Origin: Marsupella aquatica
Taxonomy: Eukaryota > Plantae > Marchantiophyta
NCBI GenBank assembly: GCA_973895155.1
Contig: OZ316896.1
Span: 4,655,925 to 4,719,924 of the forward strand
DNA: 64,000 nucleotides
Direction of reading: 5' to 3'
The notes under the pieces are model-generated. The model ran no database searches. It saw only the letters and a program-made list of their open reading frames with translations, and was not told where the DNA came from. The position numbers were made by a program, and so were the translations under genes. Shown here piece by piece: positions 7,638 through 34,810 of the stretch (the stretch's first letter is position 1; the number at the start of each line of letters is the position of its first letter).

Positions 7638-8157
7638 AATTAGTTTTTTTAGAGTCATTCACAATGTTACTTTCAATGCCAAAAACAAAAATAATATAGC
7701 CCAAAGACATAGTGAAGCGCATGGCACGGGTGTTCATGGCAAGGTGTCGGACGAGTGGCACACTCACAATGTAGGGCAAACCCTAAACCCAAAACCTATA
7801 ATATAATGTTGCGCCAATTTATAGAGTGGTAGTCATTCAAATGGGGACATTTTAGGTAAACAAAACAAAACAAGAAAAAGACAAGGACAAAACCCCAATT
7901 TAAGGAAAACCAAACTTTGGAAATTCCGAAAATCACTAAATATTATTATTTTAATAAAAAGGGGGCAACATGACGCGTGGCTGCGCGTGAAACCCTGAAA
8001 ATGACTGCAACGTCACATTTTAACCAATCCAACTTGACGGGACCAAGAGACATGCTCACGCGAATAATAATAATAGAGAAATAAATTTTTGAGATCCTTT
8101 ATATATGATAACCAGTATATAAGGAGTTTACAAATAGTTTCTAGAACGACATACAAA

Positions 8158-8884
8158 TTAATCTGATCTCATGCCGACTATTATTTTGGAAGCGTCCAAA
8201 ATTGGGCGTCTGTTAAATTGCTCTACTAGATATCTATCTCCATGCCTCTGAATCACAGAGTCTTCCCATAGAGTATGATTATAATCATAATCTCTAAAAA
8301 AAGATTTAACTGACCAATCTGGATAATCTCTTCCATTGGCAATGACAAGCGGCTCACAAGAGTTTGCTAGCTTGCTAAGATACGAAATCAGCAAGTTAAT
8401 CAGGAAACTGTCGTTGACCGACCCAAAATATTTGGGCGAAAATAATGATCCAACAACAGGATCTAAACAAGCATGAAATGCATCGGATTCGATAAGCATT
8501 ATATTTTGCTGTAGATACGCCTTCGTATAAATTCCAACCTTCTCAAAACATTTAAAAAATATTCGCTTATTTGATGTCACCCCATCGCATAAGTAACAAT
8601 GAGACTGATCCCAAATATACTTAAATGAGGCCATTTCCATCGCAGTAAAAAAAGATGCTAAAATCTGATCTAAAAGGTTCTTCCCAAGAGAGGACCAGAT
8701 CCCTACATCGAAATTCTCAAAACAGAATCTCAAGAATTCATGAAGATGAGGCCTTGGAAAAACGTATATATTCCCAATCCGAATTCCAGTTGAGACCGCC
8801 ATCAGTCGGGAATGCGGTGCAGAAACAGAGTAGATGCTCCACGTCTAAAACTATGAGCCCATTTTCTCTGCTGCAATGAATCTC
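8158..8884 (-). pseudogene. FCP1/NIF-like HAD domain, copy 3 (cargo exon, frameshifted)
   Basis: LIVLDVEHLL in the 8738-9079 frame, then PRPHLHEFLRFCFENFDVGIWSS...IWDQSHC...IMLIES in the 8158-8802 frame. In-frame GT-AG intron 8885-8976 links it to copy 2. Confidence 0.75.
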
Positions 8885-8970
8885 CTGAAGAGAAACACAA
8901 GAAGATGCATGAGCCCGTATGGATGTAGTCACGCGAATGGTCGCGTCACATATTATAGAGAAAACATCCT

Positions 8971-9678
8971 CTACACTCTGGCCATTGATAAGTGACGTCT
9001 GTTGAAGTGCTTGATAAGAACTTGATCTGCATGTCTCTGCACGTACAGATGCTCCCATATATCCTCGTTCAGATCCCAATCTCGATATAGATTTCTAATC
9101 GACCAGATGGGATAATCGAACTTGTTAGCAAACGCAAGACAAAGCCCTGAATTTGATAGCTTTCGTAAATATGGAATGAGGTCATCCCTCAAAAAGACAT
9201 CATCCAACGATCCTTGAAACGACTTAGCGAACAATAATCCGCATACAGCTGTCTGGCATGTATGGGAAGGACAGGCATCAATCTGGATTATATTCTCTGG
9301 TCGATAATCTTGAAACATATCACGTAGTCTCTCGATAGATTTGAAGACAACAGTCTTATAATTTTTCTTCACATAACCAAGATTCCAGCAATGATCCCGC
9401 GTGAACACATATATCAACTGCGACAGGTCGGTGCTCGACAACACTTCTGAAAGTATCTGATAAACCAGTTTATCGTCGAGAATAGACCAGACCATCACAT
9501 CAAAATGATCATAACATAATTTTATAAGATCATGAAGATGCAGCCTCGGAACGACACATAGAGATCCGATACGAATTCCGGGTGTCGACTTGAGCTGAGG
9601 AGTATATTTTGAAACAGAGCACAGGAAGTTTTCCAATCCTAAAACTAGAAGTTGACGCGACCTGCTCCACTTAGACAC
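8971..9678 (-). CDS. FCP1/NIF-like HAD domain, copy 2 (cargo exon)
   Basis: PRLHLHDLIKLCYDHFDVMVWS...VFKSIERL...ENIIQID; paralogous to copies 1 and 3; the motif-I Asp is replaced (LLVLGLEN). Confidence 0.75.
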   Translation of the reverse strand: MSKWSRSRQLLVLGLENFLCSVSKYTPQLKSTPGIRIGSLCVVPRLHLHDLIKLCYDHFDVMVWSILDDKLVYQILSEVLSSTDLSQLIYVFTRDHCWNLGYVKKNYKTVVFKSIERLRDMFQDYRPENIIQIDACPSHTCQTAVCGLLFAKSFQGSLDDVFLRDDLIPYLRKLSNSGLCLAFANKFDYPIWSIRNLYRDWDLNEDIWEHLYVQRHADQVLIKHFNRRHLSMARV

Positions 9679-9803
9679 CTGTAAATGAACAATTCGATTC
9701 TCATATTATGCAATTGCAAACAACCACGCGACCGGGCGCGTCACTCCCAAAAGTTCAATTTCAATCAATTTATAAATAATAATTGATAATAAACAATAAA
9801 CGT

Positions 9804-10711
9804 TTACTTATTGGACTTATCCCGGGCTTCTATAGCACGGTCTTTTTCGGCAGATAAGTATTTCATAAATTTGTCAAACTTTTCTAAATGGTCTTTATTC
9901 CCCTGATTACGAATGATCACGTTTCTCCTCCAAAGATTCGTCTTATCAATATAATCTTTCTCAAGATTTTCTTGAGAGAACGTTGGAATCCCATATCCAC
10001 TAAGGAGCTCGCGGAATGTCAACTTGTCAATTGACATGTCGCATAGATATGGATATAGTTTCTTTCTAAAAAATAGGTCATCATCAAGCCCAGAATATGC
10101 ATCGGGATACAACGATGAATAGAAGTCATTAAGGCTCGTCTTATATGCAGCGTCATCGATAAGAATGACATTCTCGATGTTGTAATCTTTAATATCGGCG
10201 GCAATGTCCGAGAGACATTTGACAAATAAAGGGATGTCATTATTATTCTTCCCAATAAGTCGAGTTGATTCTTGTCCCCATATAAATTTAATACGTTTCA
10301 AAACTTCGGGTCGAAGTATTAGCCTTACACAAGATAGAATATTTTGTTTGAACATGCACGACCAGATCGCAATGTCGTATAGATCTGCCACCTTCTCAAG
10401 AAATTCCATTAAATCAGGCCTTGGATAGATAACCTTGTGCATCTGTCTCACACCCCTTGACCGAATGGGCATCCCAGGGCTGATCTTCTCTGACCAGATA
10501 AGTACCCGATTCAGATCAAAAATTACAAGTCTCTTCTGAACCGGTGACTTCTTTGCCGATGGATTAGGCGTCATCTGTACCTGTGATTTTTGTGCCACAG
10601 GGTTTGGAGAACGTACTAGAATGGTCTGTTTGTTTCCCGCCTCCAGACGATCACCGGACTTCCGGACTGGTGCCTTCGATACTCGATCAGGGGGTTTCGG
10701 GATCTAGGCTT
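9804..10711 (-). CDS. FCP1/NIF-like HAD phosphatase domain, copy 1 (cargo exon)
   Basis: RLVIFDLNRVL...PRPDLMEFL...IAIWSC...FIWGQE...ENVILIDD, the FCP1-like HAD signature. Confidence 0.8.
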
Positions 10712-10797
10712 CTGTAAAACATTAAGAAATGAAAATAAGTTTATAACGTGAACGGTCGCGTGACTACAAAGAGAGACACTGAAATGAAGTGTATTAC

Positions 10798-11586
10798 CTG
10801 TACAAGACGGTCGTTCAGTGCTGGAATTCCGCTGGAAATGTCAATCATAGCAGCACGGATCCCGGTAACTAGGTTACTTGTGGACGTCGGCTTGCGGAAG
10901 TCCATGTCAAATAACGACAAGACTATCTCCCTACGGAATTTCTCAATTTGATCCGCGGCAAAATTAATTCCGTTTCCTTGACACAAGCACTTGGCGTATC
11001 TCAAGATAAACACACCACAACTATGGCCGTCACTCTGGTGAGGAATATCATTCCGATATATCCGTTCTCAACCTGAGAGATCCAAGTTGACACCAGTTCT
11101 CCAGCCAATTTCGTCGGCGTAGTACTTCCCAATAATATCTAGCACCCCAGGATTTTGTCGATTATGAACTAGAGAATCTAGGTACTCCAGCCGTTTCTCC
11201 TTCGGATACAAGACTACCAATGACCAATGTTCTTTCACAGCATTGTGTACTAGAAAGACCAGTTTCTCGTATTCACTGATTTTTAGCGGAAACTCCTTTG
11301 TCCAAGCTGCTCTCTCCTCGTCGAAAATGGTAGGATCCATGGAGAGAAGCTCAAAATGGTGTGTTTGGAAGAATTTGACAAGGTCTGACTTTCCAACTCT
11401 ATCGTGAATCAGTTCGAGAAAACTCAAATAAGCGTTAATTATATCATCGGTGAGCAACTCGCGCAGTCTCAGACACATCATATGTTTCCTCTTGATCGAG
11501 TGTTGTAAGAACTTGGTCAATAGCTCTTCCATATCCTTAGAAGGATCAAGGCATTGATCTATTCGACTAGCCAAATTTTCAAAAAA
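10798..11586 (-). pseudogene. Ulp1/C48 SUMO-protease domain (cargo exon)
   Basis: LTDDIINAYL, KEHWSLVV (His), YLDSL (Asp), then HQSDGHSCGVF (Gln/Cys) after an in-frame TGA at 11068 (probably TGG>TGA). Confidence 0.85.
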
Positions 11587-11738
11587 CTGCAAAAAATAGA
11601 GATTTCAGTACGCCTTCAAATAACGTACTGAGGTTGTAGCCTAAGGGTTGTAGCCTCAGAAAACAGAAACAATAATAGATCAATAATAAAATAATGACAT
11701 CTATAATAGAAACTTTAAGCTTATAGCTTGCGAATGAC

Positions 11739-12816
11739 CTTTGGATTGGGTGGATCCGGCCTTTTCACAGCTGATCTCTTGGGTGCCTCAATCGCAACAA
11801 CATCCTTCAGCCCTCCTCGAGACCGCAGTGATCGCTCCACCGGACCAGTTTGCGAAGGTTGGAGCGATGAGGCGGGAAGACCTTCAAATGGTTGTGGCAT
11901 TTGATTCAAATATTCCACAATCTGGAATCCGATTCCAAAATATCCGGTGCCACAATTTCTGCGCGAGTCACCTCTGCAATATATCGGGGTCGAGACCACG
12001 AACCCGGTCGCGTCAAGTCAACTGTTAGTCTCTTAACGACTTGAGCCGAGTTTGGTGCCAAAAACATTCCCAGGTCTTGCACTCGATTCTCGGAAAAGCG
12101 GACATTATTGATGATTGTCTCCATTCTGGATGCAGTGGCAGTGTTCTCCTCGGTAATCAAAAGACCCTTCCAATATTGCAAAGCAAGGACTGCCTGGACT
12201 CGGAGCTGCTCCGGTGAATATTTATTCCAATCATCCAACGAGACCGTACTTAAGGGTGGATCGTTAAATTCAAACTCCGGGCGAAGAAAATAGTCTAATA
12301 TTTTCTTCTTAACTGCAATTGAGGGTGAAGAAGGCTTCTTCAAATTCAGCCTTATTTTCGGTAGACGTTGTGCCTCAGGAATAAGCGAAAGATCCTTGGC
12401 CCTCTCGGCCTCCTTCCTCGTTGCCTCCAGTCTTGCGGCTTCTTCTCTCTCCAGTCTTGCGGAATCGACCTTTTCCGCCTCCAACTTCTCTGCCTCCACC
12501 CTCTCCGGTCTTGCGGTCTCGCCCGCCATCCTCTCGGCCAGCAGCCTCTCAGCCGCCACACTCTCCGCCTTGGCCCTATTTTCCTCTGTCACTAAAAGGA
12601 CTCTCGCAGCCTCCGCTTTCTCAGCCTGGGCTTTCTCAGCCTCCGCGTTCTTGGCCTGGGCTTTCTCAGCTTGGGCTTTCTCAGCCTGGGCTTTCTCCGC
12701 CTGGGCTTTCTCAGCCTGGGCTTTCTGAGCCTGGGCTTTCTCGGCCTCCGCTTTCTCAGCCTGGGCTTTACCATTGCTCCCTGCATCCTCAACATTGAAG
12801 CCGCAGTCGACTTGAT
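11739..12816 (-). CDS. Coiled-coil/linker exons with a KAQAE repeat
   Basis: In-frame intron 12817-12944 leads into DQVDCGFNVEDAGSNG(KAQAE)n, then an E/R/A-rich helix (ORF 11906-12592). In-frame intron 11587-11738 leads to the Ulp1 exon. Confidence 0.6.
12606..12768. repeat. 15-bp coding minisatellite (ctgggctttctcagc), ~11 copies
   Basis: Directly visible; the minus strand reads AAAGCCCAGGCTGAG = KAQAE. Confidence 0.9.
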
Positions 12817-12944
12817 CTGAATAAAATCAGATCATTTGATAAGAATGACTCACGCGCATATTCGCGTGAAAAGAAATGTTATGAATGTCCACGCGCATGT
12901 TCGCGTGACGCAATAAAAAGTAAGAGGTTTCAAAAGTAACTTAC

Positions 12945-13988
12945 CTTGGATTGGCCCACTAGGGTACTCCGTTGGTCGAATGTACAATCGATCGGAATCT
13001 TCAGAGAGTGCATACTCTTGCAATAATTGATTACAAATATTATCAGGGATATGTTGTTCGTGGAGGACATCCAAAACATCAGCCCTGAGAGCAGTTACGG
13101 ATGGACGGTACTTCATTAATTTATCTATACATTTTTCTATACTAGCCCGTACTGGGTCAATCAATGACAGCGTTGTATCAATTGTCGCCGTGGTGTGTTG
13201 CAAGAAACAAGACAACCCTATGCGTTGCCATAGGGCAGTAATATTTTACATTGGATCTAGCATCCTGCAAAAAAAGCCAAAATTAGTTCACAATATTAAT
13301 TGAGAATATAATAATCTAAATAATCTTAAAATCGAAACCCCAAAATATAAATCTCAAAACTTACCATTAAGCACTGGATCAAGTTCGTTCCCTCACCAAA
13401 GCATATAGCCCATTCCCCACATTGGACGAATTGACTAACAATACTTTCAAAGAATGGAAGTATCTTTTCTGGGGAAGGTGTCGTGAACTTGCCGCTCTCT
13501 TCAAAATTGGCTATCTTCTCAATCTGATATTTGGAGACCAATTGGAACTCGAGGGCTTGTGGATCGCCCATTGTGCTGAAGGCCAAGCTGTGAAAAGCGT
13601 AGGTTACAATAAGCTTCTTCTCCTTCGGCCGCTTCTGAATATAATGGCTATCGACAGCAACGTAGTGTGTGTACTTCCCTAATTCCCGTTTGATTAAGTA
13701 AGACTCAACGGGAGAGGCTACAATAATAACCACATGGTGTGGTTTTGCCCCTATCTCGCTAGTAGCACGAAATAACCCCTCATAGAATGAGCAATTTGGC
13801 GGACACAAATCTCCCATTGATGAGGGATCAAAATAAATCAAGCTTGCAAGGTTCTTGTCTTCACGTATGATACAGTCTGCAAACCCAACATTTTGTATAT
13901 CCTGCAGGGATCGCAATTTCAGCCTCTCACCGACCGGCCGCACTAGTTGGTTTCCTTGACTATCAACTGATTTTTGTATTCCTTCCAC
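12945..13988 (-). pseudogene. Degenerate beta-class N6-adenine/N4-cytosine DNA methyltransferase-like domain
   Basis: ASLIYFDPSS sits where the DPPY motif IV is expected and is followed by PEKILPFFESIVSQFVQCGEWAICFGEG, resembling the xKP...GxxVLDxFxGxG SAM-binding segment in beta-class order. Pattern recognition only. Confidence 0.45.
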
Positions 13989-15590
13989 ACCAACCTGTAG
14001 AATATAGGGTCGATCTCCTTCAACAAATTATCATTACTAATATTTACATTTATTAAGCACTTCTTCAGATAACCACTCAACGCATCTCTCAACTGCTTCA
14101 GCACCATCTTGTCAAGCTTAAAGCGATCAATCATTCCTTTGACCCGCAATTTCCACGCTGAATCTGTCAGACTTTTCAGCTCTATCCGGGTGGATGTTTC
14201 CCCGTTGAGTTTACTCAATAATAAAATCTCAAACTCAACTTTCGTCTTCTTCTTTATACAAAATTGCTCCAAACTCATGCTGGTCGTTGACAACACTGGA
14301 GCCTCAGAGGACTTCCTCGCCTTCCCAGATTTCACTTTGATGCTTCGGTTTTTGAGTATAGACAGTCTTCCGCTCAACATATATTCCACTGCCTTTCGAA
14401 GAACCGAGTCTGAGCATCCTTGACAAGAACGGAACATCTTCTTCAGAAGATGATAAGCACACGGATTATCCGCAATTTTGACGGCGTCCCTCTGTAAAAT
14501 TCCATTGTAAATTACAAGCTCTCCTGTCCTTGATAGTTCGTAGACCTCCATCCACTTCTTGAATATTTCGTCCTCCACTGTAAAGAGAAACGGAGCCAAT
14601 TCTCCAAATTTCATCATTTTGTTCTTCCCCATTTGAGCCCATGGGCAAACAAAACTCGTAGCTCTCATAAATACCTGAAAAACAATGGAAACATGACAAT
14701 TCTAAGCTTGACGCGACCGTTCGCGTGACAAAAGTTTATACGATAATGTGATCGAAGAGGGTTATTTATATACCTTCCAATTTGGATGACGATAATGTGA
14801 TCCAGGCCGCCCAAATGAGTTCCAGATATTACGACACTGTCGTACAATGGTGAGAAACTGTCCTTCTTCCATTGATGTTTGATGACAGTGGTTCAGAGCT
14901 TTCGATAATCCCATCAAATGAACATTATTGTCGTTGTTGAGCGTTGCCCAAAACATTACAGCTTCTACAGTACCGCAAGCGTCTCGTACAACTTGGCTGA
15001 CTTTGTCGTCCTCTCTCAGCAATTTGTACGCCATTATTGTGTGCTGGCCTCCGAGTATCCAGAAATGACTGGTCATAATTCCTCCTCCTTTGGCGATGAA
15101 TCGTAGGGCGTCCCATTGTAGTCGGGATCTCTGTCGGCCTCCGACTGAACCCACTTCACAGGGACTAAAAAGCAACATCGCTTCTCGAACTTTATAGCCG
15201 AATGAGAGAGGAGTGAATTCTTTAGCCTATCTGTGTAATCCTGATTCCACTCTCGGCACTTGATGTGGTCCGATGCAAGATGACAACGTGATGTCTCAAC
15301 AAAAAATGACTTGCTGTTAAATATATTCACAGCACTATATTCTTTGAGGAAAGAATCGAACAGAGCCCCGACATTTGCTAAGGTAATTACTTTCGGAAGA
15401 TTCTTCGCCGAGTATACTTCAACCTTGCTCACTGGCGGGGCCTTTCCCAAGCAAAATCCCTGGTTGAAAGGAACTCTCTGGAACTCAAGTACATCAATAA
15501 TGTATTGACAAATCAAATCTCCCGTTGATGCCTCTGGATCGGAAGGATATCCCACACTAGTAACCTTTTCCAAGGCATGCCTTGCACCTA
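13943..15590 (-). pseudogene. ParB/Srx-like domain plus helical region (cargo exons, frameshifted)
   Basis: KCREWNQDYTDRLKNSLL...CFLVPV (ORF 15073-15573) and FWILGGQHTIMAYKLL...LSKALN (ORF 14762-15178) follow the ParB N-terminal pattern (R...L..SI / PixV / GxxR / EN). In-frame intron 14675-14773 joins to ORF 13943-14668. Confidence 0.6.
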
Positions 15591-16090
15591 GAAGATCATC
15601 AATTCTAGGCTGATTGAAGGTTACATATTGCGTTCAATCCAAACAAATGCTTATTTTGTCTTCCTGCTGGTCGTCGCTAACTAGCAGAACCAATCCCTCT
15701 GTACAGTCTTTAACTTTCATGTTCTTCTCAAAGAAACACCCGAGAATTTTTGATCTCTCCAAAACTGTAGCTTTATCATTTCTTGCCACCACAAGACGGA
15801 CAGCCCCATTGCGAACGACTATTCCAAAATTGGATATCTCAGTCGATTCAAAGAGATGGATACTCTTTGTCTCCGTTGTTCTCTCTCTGATTGACTTTCC
15901 TCGATATGGTAGTATGGATGTCTCCGCGGGAGTCATTTTTGTCTTGGTTTTCTTTCGAGAAGCAGCTTTAGACGAGTCTCTTTTCCGCTTTGAGGTTCCG
16001 GTAGGATCTATTCTGTAACAGACAAATATTGAAAGTTAAATGTTTATTATAAAATACTAACACGCGCATGGTCGCGTCATGCTGAATTAC

Positions 16091-16617
16091 ATTTTAGGAA
16101 CGTTTATCTTGACCCAATCTTCTCGCTCATCTTCATCTAACCAAAACCAAAGGTTCCTAAATGTGTCAAGTTCAGATCCTTCAAATCCACCCAGAATGTC
16201 TAGCGGCGGGAGAGTTCTGATGGATTCTGTAAATCTGAATGCTACACTCCGTGAAGTCAAATGTCTTCGAAGCGATTCATATCCTGGTCTATCAGTGAAG
16301 TCGTAAGCTACCAAGGTGACCGTCGCCCAAGTACTACTATAAGTAACTATGTGGCACCACTTCTTACTGACTGTTCGAATGGCGATCAAGTCCATGACCC
16401 GATTTTTAATCGCAGTATCCGACAAATTCCCAAGACAGTGGAAAAACTCTTTGACTAATGGCCAAATATATTTCTCAACAATATCGTCCGGAAGACCGGG
16501 TATCAGGTCTTCAGCTTGACTCCATATCATGTTTCGGTTCATAACCTTTGCACGTGCAATGCGCTCCATCATCATTTGACGATGAGATTTTTGATTCATG
16601 TCAAAGGACTGCAACAT
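16091..16617 (-). CDS. F-box domain protein segment, copy 3
   Basis: LIPGLPDDIVEKYIWP...LIAIRTVSKKWCHIV; in-frame GT-AG intron 16013-16090 joins it to the next exon (15634-16012). Confidence 0.75.
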
Positions 16618-16651
16618 AATATGGAAAAGATTAAGAACAAGAACCTATCCA

Positions 16652-17180
16652 TTAAGAACTGGGACCACCGAGATTCTGAGAAAATCTACCAAACCTTTCG
16701 ATTAGGACATCTCGTTCTTCCTCATCTAAATTGTTATATTTGTTCGTAAACAATGCAATTTCATCAAAAGTAGTAGTCCCAAGAACAGATATTTCTGGAA
16801 GCATAGAAATATCCTGTCGAATAACTCGACAGACTGAGTCAAACTCCAACTCATCAGTTTCGGGTATGTCATAAAGAGCATCATTTGCGACATCAACAAT
16901 CCGGTTTGCTTGTTTGAGGATAGCCCATAACCTTGTATTTGTAACTAAAAAGTTCCACTTCTTGCTACAAGCTCCAAGCCGAATAAGGTCTCGGACCCTA
17001 TCGATAACCAAATCGTTATCGAGGTGTCGATATCCACGCAATCTTTCAATTGAAATAAAGTGTTCGTCGAGTATTGGCCAAATGTTTGAAATGACCAAAA
17101 CATCTGGTATTCCTCCAATAAGACTAGAGGAGGTTTCATCCAGCGTATCCCATATTGTTTTTTGTTTCTTTTCATGAGAT
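16652..17180 (-). CDS. F-box domain protein segment, copy 2
   Basis: LIGGIPDVLVISNIWP...LIRLGACSKKWNFLV; the frame is open upstream of the listed ORF. Confidence 0.7.
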
Positions 17181-17352
17181 GAAAGAAAATCTCAAGCCTC
17201 ATTCAAAAGTTGGCTCATCCTGCTTTTATCATATCACAAAACATTGTTAGAAGACATACGACGTGCTTGGTCACGTAAGTTAACTAGAATTCCTTAAAAG
17301 CGTAGATGTCACCCTCAAGGTATCCAACTTCGTGGCATCTGACTGTAAATTT

Positions 17353-17865
17353 CTATTTTTCAAGAGGGTGAAGAGCATCGTAAGTCTTCGTGAAGAGTTT
17401 CCTAAGATCTCTGGACATTGACCCCATGAATTTAATTCTTGGGTATTTCTGGAAGAAACTTTGAACTGTCGATGAGAGAGACTCATTTCCGATCGGTTTA
17501 GTAGGATTTCCTGGGAAAGCCAAATCTAATAAACTCAACTTGATTACACCCAAAAGATAGGTATTCCCAACAAGGTGGCGCCATCTGCGACACACCGAAG
17601 ATAGTCCTACAAACTCATCCAATTCCTTTATTGAGAAATTTCCTGCATTAGCCAAGGAATTAAAATTCTCCTGGATCCGAGGCCATATCAATTCCGCGAC
17701 AATGAAATCTGGAAGTCCAGGTAGTAGTGTTTCAACAAATACAGAATATCCCGCCAGTAGACCATCTTGGCTTCTGTCCAAAACGTCAAATATTGGGCAT
17801 AGATATTTGAAGCTCTCCAGACCAGGTTCGCCCATGACTCTTTTCAGCCAAATGATATATCCCAA
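17353..17865 (-). CDS. F-box domain protein segment, copy 1
   Basis: LLPGLPDFIVAELIWP...VGLSSVCRRWRHLV. Confidence 0.75.
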   Translation of the reverse strand: MGYIIWLKRVMGEPGLESFKYLCPIFDVLDRSQDGLLAGYSVFVETLLPGLPDFIVAELIWPRIQENFNSLANAGNFSIKELDEFVGLSSVCRRWRHLVGNTYLLGVIKLSLLDLAFPGNPTKPIGNESLSSTVQSFFQKYPRIKFMGSMSRDLRKLFTKTYDALHPLEK

Positions 17866-17975
17866 AGATTATTTTCACGCGACTGGTCGCGTCTACAAAT
17901 CAGAATGCATAAACAATTCTTTGAGAGACTGATTTTTTTGGGTCACAACGTGACAAATCATAAATGTTGCTTCGT

Positions 17976-18722
17976 CCTCTAACAGAACCAGTCAATGAGA
18001 GAGCAACCTCAGACGCGACTGGTTGCGTCAACTGAACCTAAACAACTATATCCACTAAACCTTTTGTGGAGATTTGGATATGGTACGCGCTCAGTAAATC
18101 TATCCAGTTTCCTTCTCACACGCGGCTGGTCGCGTCAACTGGTCCTAAAAGGAACCTTACCTCCTCTAACAGAACCAGTCAATGAGAGAGCTACCTCAAA
18201 CGCGACTGGTCGCGTCAACTGAACCTAAACAACTATATCCATTGAACCTTTCTTGTGGAGATTTGGATATGGTACGCGCTCAGTAAATCTATCCAGTTTC
18301 CTTCTCACACGCGACTGGTTGCGTCAACTCGTCCTAAAAGGAACCTTATCTCCTCTAATAGAACCAGTCAATGAGAGAGCTATCTCAGACACGAGTGGTC
18401 GCGTCAACTGAACCTAAAGAACTATATCCACTGAACCTTCCTTGTGGAGATTTGGATATGGTACGCGCTCAGTAAATCTATCCTATTTCCTTCTGACACG
18501 CGACTAGTCGCGTCAACTCGTCCTAAAAGGAACCTTACCTCCTCTAACAGAACCAGTCAATGAGAGAGCTACCTGACGCGACTAGTCGCGTTAACTGAAC
18601 CTAAACAACTATATCCACTGAACCTTCCTTGTGGAGATTTGGATATGGTACGCGCTCAGTAAATCTATCCAGTTTCCTTCTCACACGCGACTGGTCGCGT
18701 CAACTGGTCCTAAAAGGAACCT
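17976..18722. repeat. Tandem repeat, ~188 bp x4, with two CACGCGAC-NN-GTCGCGT palindromes per unit
   Basis: Unit start cctctaacagaaccagtcaatgagag at ~17976, 18163, 18352 and 18541; lies upstream of the minus-strand cargo cassette. Confidence 0.9.
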
Positions 18723-19844
18723 CACAGTATTTTCACACGACTGATCACGTCAATAGCTCAAACAACTTTTGGACAATAGGATAATACAGTGATACAACTG
18801 TGATTACTGACCCGTACGGACAAGGAAATCCAAGTAAGCATGATTTCATTCATTTGTATTCATTCATTTGTATTCATTCATGAACTTTACAATAATTCAG
18901 ATGTTTGAGCTCTGTCATTGTGAAACTATTATATATCAGAAGTTTAGAGAATGATCCAGCTAAGATGATTCAATTTAGCAGTCTACTGGTTGTATTCGTC
19001 AATTAAAGGATTCAGTGTAATGAGATTCACATAACATAAGAGTTTATATGATTAAATTCACAGCGTGCAAGTTTGTAATGACTTACTTAAGACGATTCAG
19101 GTTGTATTTTAATTAGTGAGTTTGTATGATTCACACATATTTGAGTTTACAAACAAACCGCATTATGAAAATTGTGCTTAATAATCAAGAGAAATTTTAG
19201 CAAACCACAATCAACACCAGCAGAAAATGTAGAAATTACACCTGAATTCTGAAAAATTGATGTAATCGTCTGAGAGATTGACGTCCAAGCACTTGAAGAC
19301 CTTGCTGCGGCATTCCAGAAAGTAAATATAAGATTGAAGATATTAATATGCTAAGCAACAACAACACAACTTCTATACTTCTATACATAGAGCTTCGCTG
19401 CCACCAATTGAATAACATGTGCTTAATGCTAAGGAGCTCATTATGTCGAGTTAAAAAGACTCTTTCAGAAGTATAATCAAAGCTGTGGATAGGCAAACTG
19501 AGCATGAATAAAAGCGCACTAAACCTGAAGATTCAAAGAGGTGAAACAAACCTGAATGCTGAATGGAAGGAACTAAAACAAGCTGCCAAAAAGTAGTTCG
19601 AGCTGCTGAAACACGTTGATTGAGCTGATATGAGCTTAAAATTGGCTGACACGAGCTGATACAAGCACTCCCAAAAAGCTAGCTGCAACGAACTAGCAAA
19701 CTAGAAGTGAATATGAGCTGTAAATGCGAGCTGCAATGCGCCAACGAGCTCCTGGTCAAAACGATGGACAACTACTAAGAGCTGCAACGCGCCGACAAGC
19801 ACCTGACTACCACGAACGAGCTGCAACAACAAAAATGAAATCCA

Positions 19845-19965
19845 GGGCAGGAGCGAGAGCGAGAGCGACAAGAGCAAGAGCGACAAGAGCGAGAGCGACG
19901 AGAGCAAGAGCGACGAGAGCAAGAGCGACGAGAGCAAGAGCGAGAGCGAGAGCGACGAGAGCAGG
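19845..19965. repeat. Purine-rich simple repeat (gagcga/gagcaa/gcgacga)
   Basis: Directly visible low-complexity array. Confidence 0.85.
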
Positions 19966-22037
19966 CGTGCAAAAGTCTAGGGAGCAAGAAACAACAACAA
20001 TGAACAATGAACTCGAGACCGTGGGCGCCAACACTAAGGAAGGACTAATTAGGGTATTGTTTTAGCATAACCCTAATAACAGCCTAGCGACAGGAAGGTT
20101 CCAGATGATCTCTGTACACTCCACCATCGACTGAACAAACTATGCAATCGTGAAAAAAAGATTATCGGATTCCTTTTGATTTGCCATACTAAAGGAGATT
20201 TCTATTTGATCGCCAATTTGAAATTTAAACCGGTAATTATGCAACTGCGAAAGATTGTTAGTGGGGACCCCCGGATCCGGATCCGTATCTTCACTATATC
20301 TGCCAATTCAAATCCAAAATGTGAACGAACGACAACTTTCTCACGATCGTTCCATCACGTAGTGGAGGCGAACTTCAAAATCATTCCATTTTGGTAGTGG
20401 AGACCGTCGGATCTGGATCCGTACTCCACTCTCTATCTTGCCAATTCAAACCCTTACTCTAAACAACGTAAAACGATTCTCACGGTCGGGGAGAACCGAT
20501 ATTCAAAATCAATCCTGTACAATGATTCTCACGACAGGAGACTCAACCAATTTTCAAAATCAAAATCGAGTCCAGATGAACACATCCTCCATGGAGTCAA
20601 TAGACTGATCTCATTGCTCACGGATCATTCTTCATTTTCAGTTTCTCCTGACCAGGATACTAGCTGGGCTCTCAGCGGAGGCTGATCCAAGGCACATTTG
20701 AGGTGGAGCAGATTGGATCATTCGACTATTCTAGTTGGAGGTGGAGCTCATTCAAGCAACGCTGGCGCAGTTCTTGTTGTATCACCTTCAATGTTGGGGA
20801 GAGCACATCCGATCAAGCGGGAGAGTTGCGACGAAGTGAGACGACAAACATTTAGAACCTCCATAGTCTGCCTCATTCATCGAAGCATTCTAGCGGACCA
20901 ACAAAGAGCGGCTATTATGAAATCATAGTCTGGTCAAGGATTTTGATCTTGATACGATCAACAAGTTGTCATTCTCTGGTGGTGGGATTCAATCACGATA
21001 CTCAAGGAAATTGGAGTTCAAAGGAGGAGGCTTAGTTGGCTGGGACGAGGAGGCTACGCTGGAAGGAAGAGGCTTGGTTGGGAGGAGGGTTTCTGCCAAC
21101 ATCGGAGGGTTGCCGCCAACATTGCTGAGACCACACCCAACTGAATAACTTGTAAGTATCAATCAGCATTAATTCTGCAATAAATGAGGAGAGTAGTTGC
21201 CTTAAATCACGCATTCAATGCATGAATTGAGTCAATGAAGTTATGGTCCAATTTCTCACTCCGATTTTGATCAATCCGTGTTTCAAGTCCAATACAGAAG
21301 CAATGTATCAGAAGTACTAGTAGAGGATCCGAATGAATTCTCTAGTCTAAAATTGTATGGCGTACGCGTATAGTTGTCCGTACGTTTTGCTATTGTTTAT
21401 TGTAGTCGACGGCCTAGCAAAACGAAACGTAATCGAGGTCCATTTTTCAGATCTTCCTGATCTCAACTTGTTAGTAGGATGACCTGTTTTTTGGGCTACA
21501 CATGTAGTTCATCACGCGCACAGTCGCGTGAACCAATTTATCTTGATATTGTTTATTGTAGTCGACTGCCCAACAAATTGGCCAGAAATATATTTTAAAA
21601 CCGAGGTCTTCGTTTCATCACGGGCCTAGTCGCGTTAATGTTTTAGAGGTCAGCGAAAGCTCTGCACTCTTAGACGTAATCGCCCTTTATTTCTCAGATC
21701 TGCCTGATCTCAACTTGTTAGTAGGATGACCTATTTTTGGTTACACATGTAGTTCATCACACGCACAGTCGCGTGAACCAATTTATCTCAGGTCTTTTTG
21801 ATATTGTTTATTGTAGTCGACAGCCTAGCGAATTGTCAGTCAGAGGAATCTTGATTTTTCCTTGATTGCAAAAATGGTTACATCGATCCCGAAGGACTTC
21901 GGATGTGGAATCCATATCCACTAGCACTATCCAGGAATTTAAGCTACACAGTATCTATAACAAGTTCTAACTTGAACTACTCTTGAATCTGTAGTTCTAA
22001 TCTTCCACTACTCAAAATATTGTTGACTTTGATCGAG

Positions 22038-22577
22038 TCAGTCATTCCAAGATGAAGGCATCCACTCATCGGTGTCTGGTGTGGATTCCCTTGAATCCAA
22101 AAATTCTTCCTTTGCCCAAGTCCTAACGTCCATAGATTTTCTCGGCTTGCTCTTTCTGTAATACAAATCAGAATCTTCGTTCATCTCTAATTGCCTTTTC
22201 TTCGGTGCGTCCACTTTCTTGGCCTCCTTGACTGTCTTAGTGTCTGCTGCTGCTTCCCCCGAAATGGATTCGACGCATGCTCTGGCCTTCAACTTCTCCC
22301 CCCTCGAAACGGATTCCATGAGGGCTTTGCCCTTTAACTTCTCCCCTGATGCCATCTTTGTAGTCATCTCTGTCGGATTGGTCTCCATCTGATCTTCCAT
22401 CGACAAATGTGGCGAATAATGTCGTCTCTCACAAAACATGTGATCCAATTTAGTCACCGTAAACATTATATTACATCGCTGACACATTCTGTAAGGAGTA
22501 CCATGAATTTGATACGTTGAATCTTCTGAATCGTCCGTCGGAACATCCTCATTCTTCGAGCTCAGCGGAGTAGTCAT
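22038..22577 (-). CDS. Unknown 179-aa cargo protein with a possible CxxC...CxxxH zinc motif and a basic/acidic tail
   Basis: ATG-initiated open ORF containing CQRC...FCERRH; TATAAA on the minus strand near 22707-22712. Confidence 0.5.
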   Translation of the reverse strand: MTTPLSSKNEDVPTDDSEDSTYQIHGTPYRMCQRCNIMFTVTKLDHMFCERRHYSPHLSMEDQMETNPTEMTTKMASGEKLKGKALMESVSRGEKLKARACVESISGEAAADTKTVKEAKKVDAPKKRQLEMNEDSDLYYRKSKPRKSMDVRTWAKEEFLDSRESTPDTDEWMPSSWND

Positions 22578-23053
22578 CGCCCTTCAAACAAGAGATGCTG
22601 ACCGAGACTAAGAATTGGAAATGAGAGAGCTGATGTGCGAATAGATTATCCAGTAGCCAGAAAATGGAATGCGTGGGGAAATGAGCAATAGGGATCATCT
22701 CAATGCTTTATACTGTTTAGTCTTCACTAGTCATTGTACATAGTGGTTTCTAGAAGAGGGTGCGCGTTTGACTGGCGCGTATTAGAATTGGCGGGAAGTT
22801 CAGTTGTCCTCTAATTATGGCTTTAATTTCACATTTAGCGACCGCCCTGGGAATACTGATTGCTAGTGAAGTCCTGAGATTTCTTATGAAGGTCAGTAGT
22901 TACTGACTGTCCGGTGTCCACTCATTGGTAAACTAGTACTGTCCACTCATTTTTCCTGAGTGGAGTTGAAATGATTGTTTGTAATCGATTGTAGTCGTTC
23001 TCATTCACTTGAAATGACTGACGGACCATGCATTATCTTTACCGGTATGTGTG

Positions 23054-23500
23054 ATGCCTTTAGATCCGTAATTGTATCTTCCTGTCTCGCGCGCAATCGT
23101 ATCTTACTTATGAAGTACCAATTACGAGCTAGAGTTTGGGCCTAGCCTTCTAGCTTCTACGTCGTAGACCCTGTACCCTCTGACTAAGGTCACGCGACAT
23201 GCCTTTAGATCCGTAATTGTATCTTCCTGTCTCACGCGCAATCGTATCTTACTTATGAAGTACCAATTATGAGCTAGAGTTTGGGCCTAGCCTTCTAGCT
23301 TCTACGTCGTAGACCCTGTACCCTCTGACTAAGGTCACGCGACATGCCTTTAGATCCGTAATTGTATCTTCCTGTCTCACGCGCAATCGTATCTTACTTA
23401 TGAAGTACCAAGTACGAGCTAGAGTTTGGGCCTAGCCTTCTAGCTTCTACGTCATAGACCCTGTTATCCCTACACCCTCTGACTAAGGTCACGCGACTAG
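23054..23500. repeat. Tandem repeat, 145 bp x3, in the divergent promoter region
   Basis: atgcctttagatccgtaattg at 23054, 23199 and 23344; each unit ends in the half-site ggtcacgcgac. Confidence 0.9.
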
Positions 23501-25365
23501 TCGCATGCAGGGCAGTGCATTGACTACATTCTGCCTACTTATTGTCGGTTGTGATAGGACAATGCAGTTCACGGACGTTTTACTGGCACTTATTAGCACT
23601 ACTGTCCTCAGTAGTTACTGACTGTCCACTCATTTGTTCTGAGTGGATGTGAAATGATTGATCGTAATCGATTGTGGTCATTCTCATTCATTTGACATGA
23701 CTGACGGACCATGCATAGTCTGTTGCCGGTATGTGTGGTACCTCTAGGGTCACGCGACCAGTCGCGTGCAGCGCAGTGCATTGACTACATTCTGCTTATT
23801 GACCGACGTGACAGGATAGTGCAGTGAAATTGACGGACGTGACAGGACTGTACGCTTACAATGATATTCTCTGATGTGCAGGATCATAATTATTATGGTG
23901 ACATCGACAGTCTGGATCAAGGAAGGCGGACAAGTTATTATAGGCATACGTGAGAAACAGGTTGGAAAAGGTCGCGTGATAAGTCTTGATCCTTCCAGGG
24001 TTTGTCACAATATTCCTCTTGGGGCGGACAGAGTTCTTCTTCTATTGGAGGAAGTTTTTGACGAGACCATTCTATGCGAAGATGGCGAACTTTTGAAGGA
24101 CATGATTGGGGGTTACCTTGTATGGGAAAGGAATCAGCTTTTTCGAGCTTCCATGGAATTGGAGGATGTGTTTGGCACTGTTGGTGATGATCAAGATCCA
24201 GTCAATCAAAATTCTGATGGGAACAACCATAATGAGAGTCGGTCTGGTGTGGAAGTAGTTTTACCAAAGGCCTTGTAGATGGGCATGCCTGTAAAGGTGG
24301 TGGATGAGAACAAGTTGATTTTTGCAGTGGCAACTATACATGTTCTAGATCCTATAGTGAAGCTTGGGGATGTCACCCTTGGGAATACACATGTGGGAAT
24401 TCTGATCAACGATTTTGTCAAGGGAGCTACCATAGATCATCTGAAGCATAGAGATTGCTTAAAAGCTTGGTCGATGGACCAACTCATTGCAAAGGATGGC
24501 AACTTGTTGTCTTTCCACAACATCAGGCAAGTTGTGGGAGGGAACACATCTCCAACAAGTGGCTGTCTTACATCCATAAAAGTAGGAAAAGAAAGAGTCC
24601 ATCTTCCCAGACATCTAGAAGAGACACATCTTTGGCACGTCAAGATGTGTTGTTGATAAACACCAAGGACTGTTGTAGTGAACCTTGTTGCCAATATCTG
24701 GACCGCAACTTGGCTATGGCAATTAGGCAAAAGTGGTGGTCAAAATCTTTTGCCGAGCGCAAGGAGGAGGAAATCAAGGCTATTAAAAATACAATACACT
24801 TGGGTACTGGAGAAAGGATTCTAGCAGTGGAGGGCAAAGTATTGTGCTTGGAGGCATGGAGAATCATTCATTCAAGAGGAAAGACTCAATTTTATGCCTT
24901 GAAGAAGACTGTGATGGCTGGAATGAACATAGGTACCCATGGTAATGCTGGAAAAAGGCGTATGTCCGAGAAAGTATCTCAAGCGTTCATGTCAATGAAA
25001 GAGATTATTGAGGAGGCAGCTGATCATCATCCAGCCAAGTTGAGAACCATGGTAGATAATACAAGGATGGTTTTGAGGGAATTGCCAACAAATCTTACTT
25101 GGGAGAATATTAGAAACAGGGTTAATGTTGTCAACCAGGAGGCTGGTCTTCCTCCAATTTCCCAACCCACCTTGAGTCATCTACATTAGATGTATTTCAG
25201 GGAGTTCTCACGTCACAAAAAGGGCAACAACTTTTCAAAGTGTACAACTTGTAGTGAGTTGCTTCAACGGAAAGCAAACCTTACAGGAGCTAAGGAAGAG
25301 TTAGAGGGCCTAAGGCGTGACGAGGAGGAACATCACCAAGACCACACACAGCAAAGAATGTGCTA

Positions 25366-25932
25366 TGTCGTGCGCATACACATCGCTACACAACATATTC
25401 AAACATAGTCACAATCCACTAACACGAACATAAGAGAATGGAGTACAAATGGAACCAATGTCCACATGCCCAAAACCCACAATAATCTTTTCTGGATGAA
25501 ATCGAACAACGATCAGTGCTAATCCAACAACGATCCCGTCCGACACGATCACACATATATGTCAAGCCCAACGCACCTTGTGCTTCAAGGAATCCACGTT
25601 ACTTGCACACAACCTGGTCAGCCACACCATAGCCACCAAGCTCATGCTCAAAGGCTCAACATTGAAAGATGAGGCCTTTGAGCCAACACAAGGGGATAAC
25701 TATCCCTCACACCAACTCAAACTAAACACAAAGTGCTCATATAGCACACATACAAAACCTCTATACCCTGGATAGTACGATATACTTTACTACCACTCTA
25801 AATGGTGTGACAGCTGTCGTGCGCATACACATCGCTACACAACATATTCAAACATAGTCACAATCCACTAACACGAACATAAGAGAATGGAGTACAAATG
25901 GAACCAATGTCCACATGCCCAAAACCCACAAT
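25366..25932. repeat. Terminal repeat block A(25366-25483)-B(25484-25812)-gc-A(25815-25932)
   Basis: The two 118-bp A copies look identical; B (329 bp) recurs at 34811-35139 with 3 transitions seen. Confidence 0.92.
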
Positions 25933-25942
25933 CGCCCCCCTA
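25933..25942 (-). promoter_or_regulatory. Polypurine tract
   Basis: Minus strand TAGGGGGGCG directly precedes repeat A. Confidence 0.7.
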
Positions 25943-26105
25943 GCTGGGAGTGAGGTCCTCTAACTCTAGCTAGCCATGAGTTCTACAAGGTTAATATACA
26001 CCTTTGTAGGTGCAAAGATCAGGAGGCCGGGTGCAAGTGAGCCCCATCGATCGCCTACCTGAAATCTATATCTTCCACAAGAACACAAATGATAACTAGT
26101 CGGCA

Positions 26106-27626
26106 TCACCGACATTGAGGACAAAACCATGATCCGCTAGGAATCATGTGCAAGGGTGGTGTCAAACACGACATGTGCCATCCTCTAGAACACCTATCAC
26201 AAATCAACATAGTAGCTGCTTCCTGAGCAGACCCACACAACATACACTTCAAGCTAGCACGAACATGTGCCAAGCTTGGATCCACAGTGCCATCAATGTT
26301 TGGAAGGTGACATGGCGCACAATTACGCACATGATCCTTCCAAACCATACCATCACGCCCTTCCAACATAAGGACTCCAGAAGGCAACACTTCACGCACA
26401 CGCAAGATTGTCCGCCTTGCAGTCACATCAAGCGTTGTTGGTGCTGTCTGCTACAAATAAACATAATCGCCAGGATGAAATCTCCTAATCTTCGTGCGAT
26501 AACCTCCTCCACGAATAGTAGCATATCGCAAAGTATCACGATGCTGGGCAATAGCAAGGTTGTCAAAGGCCATGGGCATGACTCTCTCAAAAACTCGTGC
26601 CCTCTCTGAACAAACATTTACCCAAATATCTGGATCATCCAAATCCACAATAGTTGCAACATCACGACGAATAGCCGCTGGCAAATCTGGCTCTCTACCA
26701 TAGAGCAAGAAATAGGGTGAGAAGGACGCAAGTGATGCTTGTCGACTGAAACGGTAGCCCATAGCTAACCAAGGTAGTTGGAGATCCCAGTCTCCCAAAT
26801 TACCAACCTGTAAGCCATACTTGCGCAATCCTCTCTTCACAGTTTGTACAACTCTCTCTGCCAATCCATCTGCCTCAGGATGATCGCGAGAAGTAGTACG
26901 ATGGTCAATCAGAGCTTGCTCACACAAACTCTCAAAATCTCCACGGAATTCCGTGCCCTGATCAGTCAACACCTCAGCTGGTGCTCCAAAGTGACTGAGT
27001 ACTCGATCCAGAAATGTGGTAGCCACTCCTCCACTAGCTTTATCTGGCAATGCCACTAGTTCAATCCACTTGGAGAAGTGCTCCACCATAACCAAAACAT
27101 AACGGTTATGTCATTGGGTGAGAGGCAATGGACCAGCAAAGTCCAAACTCCATCTGTACCCCAAACCCATGATTGGCAATGGATGCAACTGGGGAGTGGG
27201 AGCATTAAATGATGCCCTCACTCGATCACATACCACACACTTAGCTATCAGTTGCTGGACATGAGTGTGCATATCACGCCACCAATACTGTGTCTGCAAC
27301 AAGCTATAAGTGCGCTTGACACCAAAATGCCCTAACTCCTCGTGCGCATGTCGCACCAAATGTACTCGTTGTGATGGTTTTGGTACCACCAATACCTTAC
27401 CATCACGTAGTACTCTCAAAAGATGGCTTCCTTCCCATCGAAACCTCTTGGCTCTCTGTAGAACCCTGTCACGTTCCTTGGCATCAATACTGCCAACAAT
27501 AGAACCACTACGCAGATATTCCAACACTTTCACATCATTGTGAATATCTTGCTGTCCAAAAGTTACCTCACCAACATCCACATCTGAAGACTCATCATCT
27601 GCTTCATCCAATGAAGTAGAGTCCAC
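26106..27626 (-). pseudogene. Integrase (H2C2 zinc finger, DDE core) with C-terminal PHD finger
   Basis: AHEELGHFG...CVVC; WSLDFAG...LTDQGTEF...GLAERVV; CMLC...CDRCSRGWHMSCL...WFCPQC. Stops at 27111 and 26451. Confidence 0.9.
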
Positions 27627-27671
27627 AGAACCACTGCATGCTGGAACCCAACAAAGGAAGGCAGATGCATG

Positions 27672-29183: not shown

Positions 29184-29231
29184 CAGATCCCTAATATCTT
29201 TTTGTAGGGTAGAAGAGATAGCCGATGATTG

Positions 29232-33224: not shown

Positions 33225-33781
33225 GATGACAAATCTGCCCTAAATCATCACCATCACCTTCATAATAGGCTTCACAATGCCCCAAGGTTGTAGCTAAGAA
33301 TCCATGCAAAATTAATCCAATCTATGCATCTAGATGGATTCAGAAGTATAAAAAACCTCCAAGTAGCATCTAATTTGGCCCAGAACAGGTCTCTAGACAA
33401 ACTAATAAGTGTATAAAGCCCCCTGGCCCTTTAACTTAGACAACAAGTTGTGAAAACTTGTGTGTACACTACATGCCATAAGAACCCCATGGTTAAGCAC
33501 GCGTAGGAGGAATAGCTTTGGGATGGGTGACCTCCCCCTTGGAGTTATGCACCAACTTAGGCACTCCAAACCAACCAATTGTCAACTACTCCTCACGTAC
33601 CAACAAGCTACCTTGCGGCCCGCTCCGGTCTGGCTCCTGTTCCGTCCTCACGCCCCTCGTCATGAGTCGCCTTGAAACGCGAGATGAGCCTAAGGGAGCC
33701 CTTCACACCCGCCACACTTCGCTACGTCGGGGTGAACCTCCAATTCAAATCCATTCAATAGTCATCCGGACGCCCGGTCCA

Positions 33782-34796: not shown

Positions 34797-34810
34797 TCAT
34801 CTTTCAATGT
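34797..34810 (-). promoter_or_regulatory. Putative self-priming primer-binding site (Tf1-like)
   Basis: 14-nt perfect inverted match to 34986-34999 inside repeat B; abuts the repeat border; no TGG tRNA-type PBS here. Confidence 0.7.

Follow-up and report, generated by a model that had tools for sequence, protein, structure and literature searches.

The window, a stretch of 64,000 nucleotides of Marsupella aquatica contig OZ316896.1, holds a complete copy of a DNA transposon. The element is 30.0 kb long, or ~20.2 kb without the retroelement nested in it, and it is a decayed member of a many-copy family, placed in the Sola1 type by its Pfam DUF7869 match and its terminal features. A candidate target duplication, ACAA, stands on both flanks of this one insertion, and the match can be extended to 10 bp within a short local repeat. 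Contig depth drops outside the left end, with 161 at 7847 against 1147 at 8087 in X1. The features of the element are collected in Table 1.

Table 1. Features of the transposon copy, in window coordinates
Feature	Position	Strand	Basis
Whole transposon copy, Sola1-type, ends AACCC...GGGTT	7891..37911		Terminal inverted repeats, flanking duplication ACAA
Left terminal inverted repeat, imperfect	7891..7951	+	Inverted-repeat match, 20 nt, 95%
Dyad between left end and cargo gene 3' end	7973..7988		Perfect core
Three exons, each with one FCP1/NIF-like HAD phosphatase domain	8161..10711	-	Pfam NIF, E 3e-12, 2.9e-9, 4.9e-11
Ulp1/C48 SUMO-protease-like exon, one stop at 11068-11070	10798..11586	-	Pfam Peptidase_C48, E 1.4e-6, 4.4e-4
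Low-complexity exon with 15-nt (AEKAQ) repeat	11740..12816	-	Open frame and repeat
N4C/N6A methyltransferase-like region, by eye only (YFDPSS, FGEGT)	12945..14027	-	Motif order
Helical exon after ParB domain, candidate DNA-reading part	13988..14674	-	Homology to CAM6097985.1
Exon with basic tract, PH-like domain and predicted ParB/Srx-fold domain (WILGGQHT)	14774..16012	-	Homology to P0001
Three F-box-like exons	16091..17838	-	Pfam F-box, E 0.002-0.013, below curated cut-off
Ten dyads upstream of cargo gene, eight in four 189-bp tandem units (17975-18722)	17877..18750		Motif and repeat scan
Three dyads in a local non-coding duplication, downstream of the 22041-22583 frame, possible intron	21514..21774		Motif scan
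Probable second cargo gene, 181 aa, without family match	22041..22583	-	Open frame
Tandem 145-bp repeats containing half-sites and two full dyads (23491, 23752), between second cargo gene and transposase	23054..23767		Motif and repeat scan
DUF7869-type DDE transposase, split by retroelement, motif-free, CpG-poor	23865..36909	+	Pfam PF25273, E 5e-35
Nested gypsy-type retroelement, 5-bp target duplication, outside motif system	25366..35139	-	Repeat ends
Right terminal inverted repeat, imperfect	37848..37911	-	Inverted-repeat match to left end

The cargo gene and its predicted ParB-fold protein

The cargo gene (8161-17838) and the transposase gene run in opposite directions. DUF7869, NIF, C48 and F-box were the only Pfam families among the 27 frames scanned, which included no Mutator transposase or VANC-family protein, and the six frames of the 18.8-22 kb region, read through stops, gave no protein family.

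In this copy a stop at 15634-15636 and a frameshift near 15079 disrupt the exon with the ParB-like domain. Two pieces of it are 44% and 59% identical to the homologue P0001, for which we used an AlphaFold2 model (pLDDT 73). Foldseek ranks 1-9 for this model are ParB, Noc, PadC, KorB and Srx proteins (probability 0.93-1.00; E 0.011-0.14, all above 0.001), and VIA-align gave Z 8.5, modestly above the common background, with rmsd 2.9 and 2.6 over 99 and 93 residues and KorB a joint top match. Through this close homologue the cargo protein is predicted to have a ParB/Srx fold, which bears out the original prediction of a ParB-like cargo protein. Sequence profiles did not name the domain: the best Pfam entry was DUF6551 (E 0.05-0.17), the PHROG ParB-like family reached E 0.13, and PDB sequence searches gave no significant match. 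The parS-loading ParBs carry an arginine-rich CTP-binding box, GxxRxxA; the corresponding box here is GGQHT, without the usual arginines, and it is unchanged in all 9 close homologues compared. In the P0001 model the ParB domain is followed by helices, and the candidate helical exon of the window matches Calypogeia fissa CAM6097985.1 at 39% identity over 102 aa; in that protein it is joined to the ParB exon.

Many eukaryotic contigs and a liverwort genome contain homologues that are 30-59% identical and share the exon end. Scans with the ParB-box pattern returned one decayed 1.2-kb metagenome contig, which has no dyad, and gave no confirmed relative among prokaryote genomes and viral contigs, which is weak evidence. 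No second family with DNA was recovered.

The methyltransferase-like region gave no match in Pfam, PHROG, PDB or Atlas, nor in an HMM search, and its single-sequence model has pLDDT 34. Aligned by hhalign with 11 bacterial and phage enzymes, it falls in register at the SAM-binding end, though at a probability of 0.3% and E 0.23. DPSS is the family majority here as well, so that this copy does not differ from it. Methyltransferase identity failed every statistical test tried and stays a lead; the region in this copy is degenerate at best.

Sequence and placement of the dyads

An 18-bp CpG-rich palindrome had been noticed at this locus. Its palindromic nature holds, but the consensus was over-specified: the part invariant across copies is ACGCG-N6-CGCGT, 16 bp. 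There are 25 copies within 7973-23767 (15 perfect, 7 with one mismatch, 3 with two), and every copy originally listed was recovered within one base of its stated place, including nine at 18012-18750 and a perfect 18-mer at 23751-23768. When all 5-bp spaced palindromes were counted without bias, the dyad ranked first in the motif zone, where 22 copies have at most one mismatch. By comparison, 100 second-order Markov simulations of 7891-23860 gave means of 0.01 perfect and 0.17 one-mismatch copies, with maxima of 1 and 2. The remaining 48,030 bases of the window have none with one mismatch or fewer; as first noticed, the host, retroelement and transposase DNA there lacks such copies. Multiplication by tandem repeats was likewise confirmed, as the 189-bp and 145-bp units carry dyads. 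Viral contigs, scanned with a 23-nt form of the motif, returned 0 matches.

The spacer sequence is free, the 6-bp spacing is strict, with no perfect half-site pair at any other spacing from 0 to 15, and both orientations are present. Together with the fixed half-sites, these properties fit a dimeric DNA-binding protein, and we infer that the dyads are the cognate site of the ParB-fold protein. Each dyad contains four CpGs; CpG transitions account for 11 of the 13 half-site mismatches, and one mismatch, at 18747, is absent from the family majority.

Eight of the nine cargo-gene dyads lie in predicted introns, which offer 8.7% of positions (P 2.8e-8); these introns were predicted by hand from sequence, with the motifs in view. 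Seven of the ten predicted introns carry dyads. Introns 8885-8976 and 9679-9807 in the phosphatase part have one each (8931, 9726), as do 10712-10797 (10746) and the two that flank the ParB-fold exon, 14675-14773 (14711) and 16013-16090 (16062); intron 12817-12944 has two (12852, 12891), and a degenerate dyad at 17261 falls in the gap between the second and third F-box-like exons from the left. Introns 11587-11739 and 13265-13364 have none. The expectation that all cargo copies would lie in introns or between open frames therefore fails for one, a two-mismatch dyad at 11998 inside the open frame of the low-complexity exon; an intron around it was considered, but no phase-compatible one was found.

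Since seven intron dyads sit 34-48 nt before the 3' splice site, the palindromes might be RNA hairpins that guide the splicing of short introns. That distance, however, follows from intron lengths of 60-155 nt, the half-sites are fixed without compensatory changes and occur in both orientations, and 16 of the 25 dyads lie outside the introns and exons of the cargo gene while 3 of its 10 introns lack one, all of which makes a splicing role extremely unlikely. A host reader of unmethylated CGCG could instead be exploited by the element, with the ParB-fold protein doing another job. Plant factors such as CAMTA do bind CGCG cores, but none is known to have the spacing of the dyad, and the absence of dyads from the 48 kb of other DNA also makes a host factor quite improbable. 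The dyads could also serve transposition, with the transposase or a ParB clamp compacting or synapsing the 20-kb element: ParB clamps bridge DNA, and the perfect dyad at 7973 is 82 bp inside the left end. Yet the 3.1 kb at the right end contains no dyad or half-site, and the CpG boundary described below would be left unexplained, so we give this role very little credence.

CpG content and decay of the motif zone

With motifs masked, CpG observed/expected is 0.83 in 7891-23860, and it is 0.87 in a 2.7-kb motif-free gap of the zone, against 0.35 and 0.26 in the two transposase parts and 0.39 in the left flank; a host kinase gene has 0.96. Across codon junctions the values are 0.84 for the cargo, 0.33 for the transposase, 0.14 for the retroelement and 0.97 for the host gene (Fisher P 1.3e-4). 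CpG falls 260-680 bp beyond the last dyad. The new observation is that CpG retention is confined to the motif zone, where it is at host-gene level, while the transposase gene of the same element is depleted.

CpG richness of this kind could stem from transcription alone or from recent capture. In the first case the ParB-fold protein would bind the dyads as an ordinary long-range transcription regulator, acting by KorB-like autoregulation or activation, with CpG retention a by-product of cassette transcription. The KorB match, the host-gene CpG level of the cargo and the position of the densest dyad clusters upstream of genes (17877-18750, 23491-23767) are all in keeping with such a regulator. 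We nevertheless regard it as unlikely, because one dyad per intron over a 10-kb gene exceeds the needs of a promoter switch and because 5 kb of DNA that is non-coding or decayed also retains CpG, although the transposase gene, necessarily transcribed too, is depleted. In the second case the cassette and its dyads would have come recently from an unmethylated donor, and the CpG content would record history and not protection. The CpG boundary does approximate the cassette boundary, and in red algae accessory cassettes of this sort pass from one transposon family to another, according to the accessible part of 10.1101/2025.02.11.637652. Against this, the spread of the homologues described above points to long residence in plants, the pattern scans gave no prokaryotic or viral relative (weak evidence), and dead copies decay fast (L001 has 16 CG vs 41 GC); we consider recent capture very improbable.

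Decay is visible in the window copy itself. Within 12900-15300 it shows 22 differences from the family majority, of which 18 are C-to-T losses (9 CG, 7 CHG, 2 CHH), and the gene body has lost 4.7% of its CG and 4.2% of its CHG cytosines. The host thus methylates motif-zone DNA, and CpG richness needs upkeep. Since this copy decayed despite near-identical siblings, either the dyads are not sufficient for protection or the supply of the protein in trans is not constant, and any protection would be local and not permanent, given the decay inside the zone and the unprotected transposase gene. The original reading of self-protection accordingly stands in part: a predicted ParB fold, non-coding placement, repeat amplification and CpG retention in the motif zone agree with it, whereas the unprotected transposase gene and the CG and CHG losses inside the zone do not. 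A 35-bp duplication spanning the 14711 dyad stands in contigs of 4 of 4 runs and segregates among sibling copies.

Related systems and proposed role

The closest described element is Sola1-1_Ec32 of Ectocarpus, a likeness based on its published description in the accessible text of PMC12477816 and not on sequence comparison. It is ~21 kb long, its ends AACCG-CGGTT share 4 of 5 letters with those found here, and its 4-bp target duplication tends to end in A, which ACAA fits; ACAA does not fit the AWWT of insect Sola1. It also carries a ParB-like accessory gene opposite to its transposase, whose best match is the moss element Sola1-1_PPa. The accessory protein has 1104 aa and combines ParB with an N4C/N6A methyltransferase, and its authors propose self-binding and self-modification; a binding site, intron placement or CpG footprint is not described in that part of the source. 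The element in the window differs in its land-plant host, its defined 16-bp dyad, and its added F-box, PH-like, Ulp1 and three NIF domains.

The accessory genes PAG2/PAG3 of red-algal Plavaka, as far as the accessible part of 10.1101/2025.02.11.637652 describes them, also belong to giant DNA transposons with a ParB-like accessory protein and a self-binding hypothesis, and tandem inverted-repeat arrays adjoin the gene as they do here. These transposons differ in having an EnSpm/Plavaka transposase and a ParB fused to a 2OG oxygenase, and their repeats are described as adjacent arrays, in contrast to the one-per-intron layout here. In the same source, VANC is the only proven transposon system that binds and unsilences its own DNA. 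In the available portion of PMC5735166, VANDAL21/VANC21 of Arabidopsis resembles the present element in having a short motif specific to the family, which lies in introns and in intergenic and terminal non-coding DNA and is multiplied by tandem repeats that differ from copy to copy, like the 35-bp duplication. CG methylation is lost locally near its motif sites, and supplying VANC21 is reported to remove methylation even from silent copies that are not transcribed. In contrast to the present element, VANDAL21 has a Mutator transposase, a proven function, a 9-bp motif that is AT-rich, not palindromic and found in one orientation, and an element-wide non-CG effect, whereas the transposase gene here is unprotected; VANC is MAIN-related and not ParB (PMC13547354, accessible text). 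Bacterial ParB/parS, Noc, KorB and VirB combine a ParB/Srx fold with a palindromic 16-bp site, and VirB is a ParB-type clamp able to load, slide and undo silencing, as the part of PMC10770331 available to us describes. The element here differs from these in its GGQHT box, the absence of a ParA partner and its setting in eukaryotic chromatin.

We propose, and give an even chance, that the element's ParB-fold protein binds the dyads and, in propagating copies, shields both the cargo cassette of 16 kb and the promoter of the transposase from CG and CHG methylation by the host. The protein would probably bind intron and promoter dyads as a putative dimer and might then load and spread in the manner of ParB, KorB or VirB. 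It would also deliver to local chromatin the Ulp1, phosphatase, F-box and methyltransferase-like modules, for which splicing into one protein or into co-transcribed proteins is predicted. Because the dyad has four CpGs, methylation may itself affect binding, and the system would then be a switch that maintains its own on or off state.

A wider and more doubtful possibility is that a bacterial-type ParB clamp has been turned into a sequence-specific anti-silencer in land-plant transposons. It would load at CpG-rich dyads, slide ~1 kb either way through chromatin, bring a deSUMOylase, phosphatases, F-boxes and a methyltransferase-like module, and set up an unmethylated island of its own, a solution that would recur across eukaryotic transposon superfamilies with a different palindrome each time.

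The idea of a self-binding ParB is already published for algal transposons (red-algal Plavaka, brown-algal Sola1-1_Ec32); the land-plant case, with a defined site and a methylation footprint, is new. We found no land-plant ParB-bearing transposon in the literature, although subscription papers, Repbase entries or bioRxiv supplements may describe some. In the accessible algal sources the same role is proposed for ParB-like accessory genes without a defined site or evidence of effect. The present element, in a host with CG and CHG methylation, offers an exact 16-bp site, a young family with near-identical copies and a protection footprint, which make the proposal directly testable. If true, it would add a second, independent anti-silencing chemistry in plants and a eukaryotic ParB clamp, and possibly a tool for targeted demethylation.

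The transposon, its cargo and its copy family

The element under study is probably a Sola1. It is flanked on both sides by ACAA, a match extendable to 10 bp, and measures ~20.2 kb without the nested retroelement. Sola1-1_Ec32 of Ectocarpus is 21.5 kb long, with AACCG-CGGTT ends and a 4-bp duplication that tends to end in A, and its best match is a moss Sola1 (supplement of PMC12477816). On its size, its ends, its apparent duplication and that moss match, our element, compared by described features, most probably belongs to the Sola1-1_Ec32 group as a land-plant member. The host itself is probably a seed-free land plant, going by a Calypogeia fissa homologue, a lectin receptor kinase gene and decay at both CG and CHG.

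Features of the window and their positions
Feature	Position	Strand	Description
Element inverted ends	7891 and 37911		AACCC...GGGTT
Cargo modules	8161-17838	-	F-box-like exons, ParB exon, helical exon, methyltransferase-like region, repeat exon, Ulp1 protease, three NIF phosphatase exons
15-nt repeat	19851-19963
Open frame	20080-20925	+	only 2 stops in 282 codons; no family match in any frame
DUF7869 transposase	23865-36909	+	Pfam E 5e-35; split by the retroelement
Nested gypsy-type retroelement	25366-35139		5-bp duplication; 3 differences/330 bases between terminal repeats
Retroelement's own palindromic word, extra copy	30544-30587		one copy, in coding region
Retroelement's own palindromic word, array	33773-34234		about seven 70-bp tandem units
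Short telomere-like repeats	35661-35720		both orientations; within probable transposase intron
Host L-type lectin receptor kinase gene	41424-44669		CpG-rich; taken as unmethylated control
Long frames	47183-51539	-	490 and 947 aa; five 183-bp repeats; no Pfam match

Eight cargo introns are predicted with clean GT-AG ends and two more with weaker support, and the junction between the ParB exon and the helical exon is shared by an annotated Calypogeia fissa protein. The window copy is broken by stops and frameshifts; since the frameshifts are absent from sibling contigs, intact copies may produce the cargo modules as a single long protein. Contigs of four sequencing runs from two studies cover the cargo. 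The dominant contigs are identical to the window across 100-270 bases and far deeper than divergent ones (e.g., 813 versus 34-69 in run X1), which points to a family of many copies, the majority of them young, the depth being no guide to exact copy number.

Ahead of its reverse transcriptase, the retroelement encodes a C5 cytosine methyltransferase domain (Pfam E 7.7e-10); a PHD finger follows its integrase. Its ends resemble split direct repeats, with A-B-A at one end and B at the other; nonetheless, its integrase is of the DDE type and its target duplication is 5 bp long. A literature search on such a retroelement returned only tyrosine-recombinase elements among the matches listed.

The palindromic sites and their placement

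All of the palindrome copies named in the original prediction are found in the window. Its 18-bp consensus is too specific: the conserved unit is ACGCG-N6-CGCGT, with a spacer that is free in sequence and fixed in length. This unit ranks first among spaced 5-bp palindromes in an unbiased count. There are 15 perfect and 7 one-mismatch copies, every one within 7973-23767, compared to expected means of 0.01 and 0.17 in 100 Markov simulations of the motif zone (7891-23860). With the two-mismatch sites at 11998, 17261 and 18735 counted, there are 25 in all; four further two-mismatch matches elsewhere in the window, at chance level, were left uncounted. No perfect half-site pairs were seen at other spacings from 0 to 15, and the remaining 48,030 bases of the window contain 0 perfect or one-mismatch copies. 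Sites are present in both orientations. We think it improbable that they are read by a host factor, and slightly more so that they act in transposition, since the right end of the element has no site.

Eight of the nine intragenic sites fall in predicted introns, as had been proposed, although these make up 8.7% of positions (P = 2.8e-8, calculated with three intron ends that were off by 1-2 bases); the introns, seven of ten of which contain sites, were predicted by hand and not blind to the sites. That the palindromes act as RNA hairpins seems very improbable. A 35-bp duplication over the 14711 site is present in contigs of all four runs, which argues that site amplification is still ongoing.

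Predicted fold of the ParB-like protein

P0001, a close homologue of the cargo ParB exon, shares 44% and 59% identity with the two pieces of that exon in the window and was modeled from a 21-sequence alignment (pLDDT 73). The best nine Foldseek rows for this model belong to ParB, Noc and PadC, with probabilities of 0.92-1.00 and E-values of 0.011-0.14 (none of the nine <0.001). In VIA-align, PadC (rmsd 2.9 over 99 residues) and KorB (rmsd 2.6 over 93 residues) both score Z 8.5, ahead of five further ParB/Srx-fold chains. The predicted fold of the homologue thus matches ParB, Noc, PadC and KorB, in agreement with the ParB-like cargo protein first recognized from the sequence. P0001 residues 30-175 have a predicted PH-like fold (Z about 5, VIA-align), as does the domain preceding ParB in the window (15637-16012); this fold is used by histone chaperones too.

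CTP-binding ParBs carry an arginine box. The cargo protein shares the ParB fold, judging from the model of its homologue, but the arginine CTP-binding box is absent from the nine close homologues, all of which read GGQHT there. Beyond the box, methyltransferase-like words appear by eye in the right order; the hhalign probability for a comparison with 11 known enzymes was 0.3%, and other tests gave nothing. ParB-type HTH fusions are listed for eukaryotic adenine methylases (PMC4738411). Each of the four runs also has contigs that match the 42-base ParB box alone (15024-15069) and then diverge; more distant ParB-bearing families are present in those samples.

The CpG footprint and its reading

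CpG o/e, computed with the sites masked, reaches 0.83 across 7891-23860, 0.87 within a 2.7-kb site-free gap and 0.96 in the host kinase gene; the left flank (0.39) and the two transposase parts (0.35 and 0.26) lie lower. Change points lie at 7678-9323 on the left and 24024-24446 on the right, and codon-junction CpG is 0.84 in the cargo, 0.33 in the transposase, 0.14 in the retroelement and 0.97 in the host gene. Recent capture of the cassette is, in our estimate, a rather remote explanation of this pattern. Plain transcriptional control through the sites, with CpG retention as a by-product, is unlikely, if the least so of the alternatives.

The window copy differs from its siblings in 28 rows, of which 22 were kept (the other letter being the majority in all four runs) and 6 mixed ones dropped. 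C-to-T losses in the window copy account for 18 of the 22 (9 CG, 7 CHG and 2 CHH), or 4.7% of CG, 4.2% of CHG and 0.3% of CHH sites; a second set, 23 transition rows picked among 40 listed, contains 9 CG, 7 CHG and 7 CHH. Because the window copy has these CG and CHG losses, the motif-zone DNA is taken to be methylatable. Half-site mismatches are CpG transitions in 11 of 13 cases, at about the window copy's decay rate, and the one at 18747 is restored in the family majority. With the zone CpG-rich and the window copy decayed, the propagating lineage has retained CpG solely where sites occur, whereas a dead copy loses it. This footprint cuts both ways: the sites failed to save the window copy.

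Given the observed sites, their placement, the fold and the footprint, the reading we favour, at about even odds, is that the ParB-fold protein encoded by the element binds the dyads and, in active copies, keeps methylation off the cassette and the transposase promoter. The protein would bind the dyads as a dimer and spread, and the other cargo modules may take part.

Red-algal Plavaka elements have ParB-like accessory genes, with self-binding proposed and inverted-repeat arrays adjacent (10.1101/2025.02.11.637652), and a ParB-like accessory gene with a self-binding proposal is described for Sola1-1_Ec32 (PMC12477816). VANC21 motifs, which occur in introns and tandem repeats, cause CG hypomethylation locally (PMC5735166); among ParB-type proteins, VirB is an anti-silencing clamp (PMC10770331). 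Among the openly available papers listed in literature searches there was no land-plant case of a ParB-bearing transposon. The suggested likeness to a VANC system survives in layout, yet the element is not a VANDAL. It is unusual in both layout and composition, but elements of this kind have been proposed before, and it is a variant of them.
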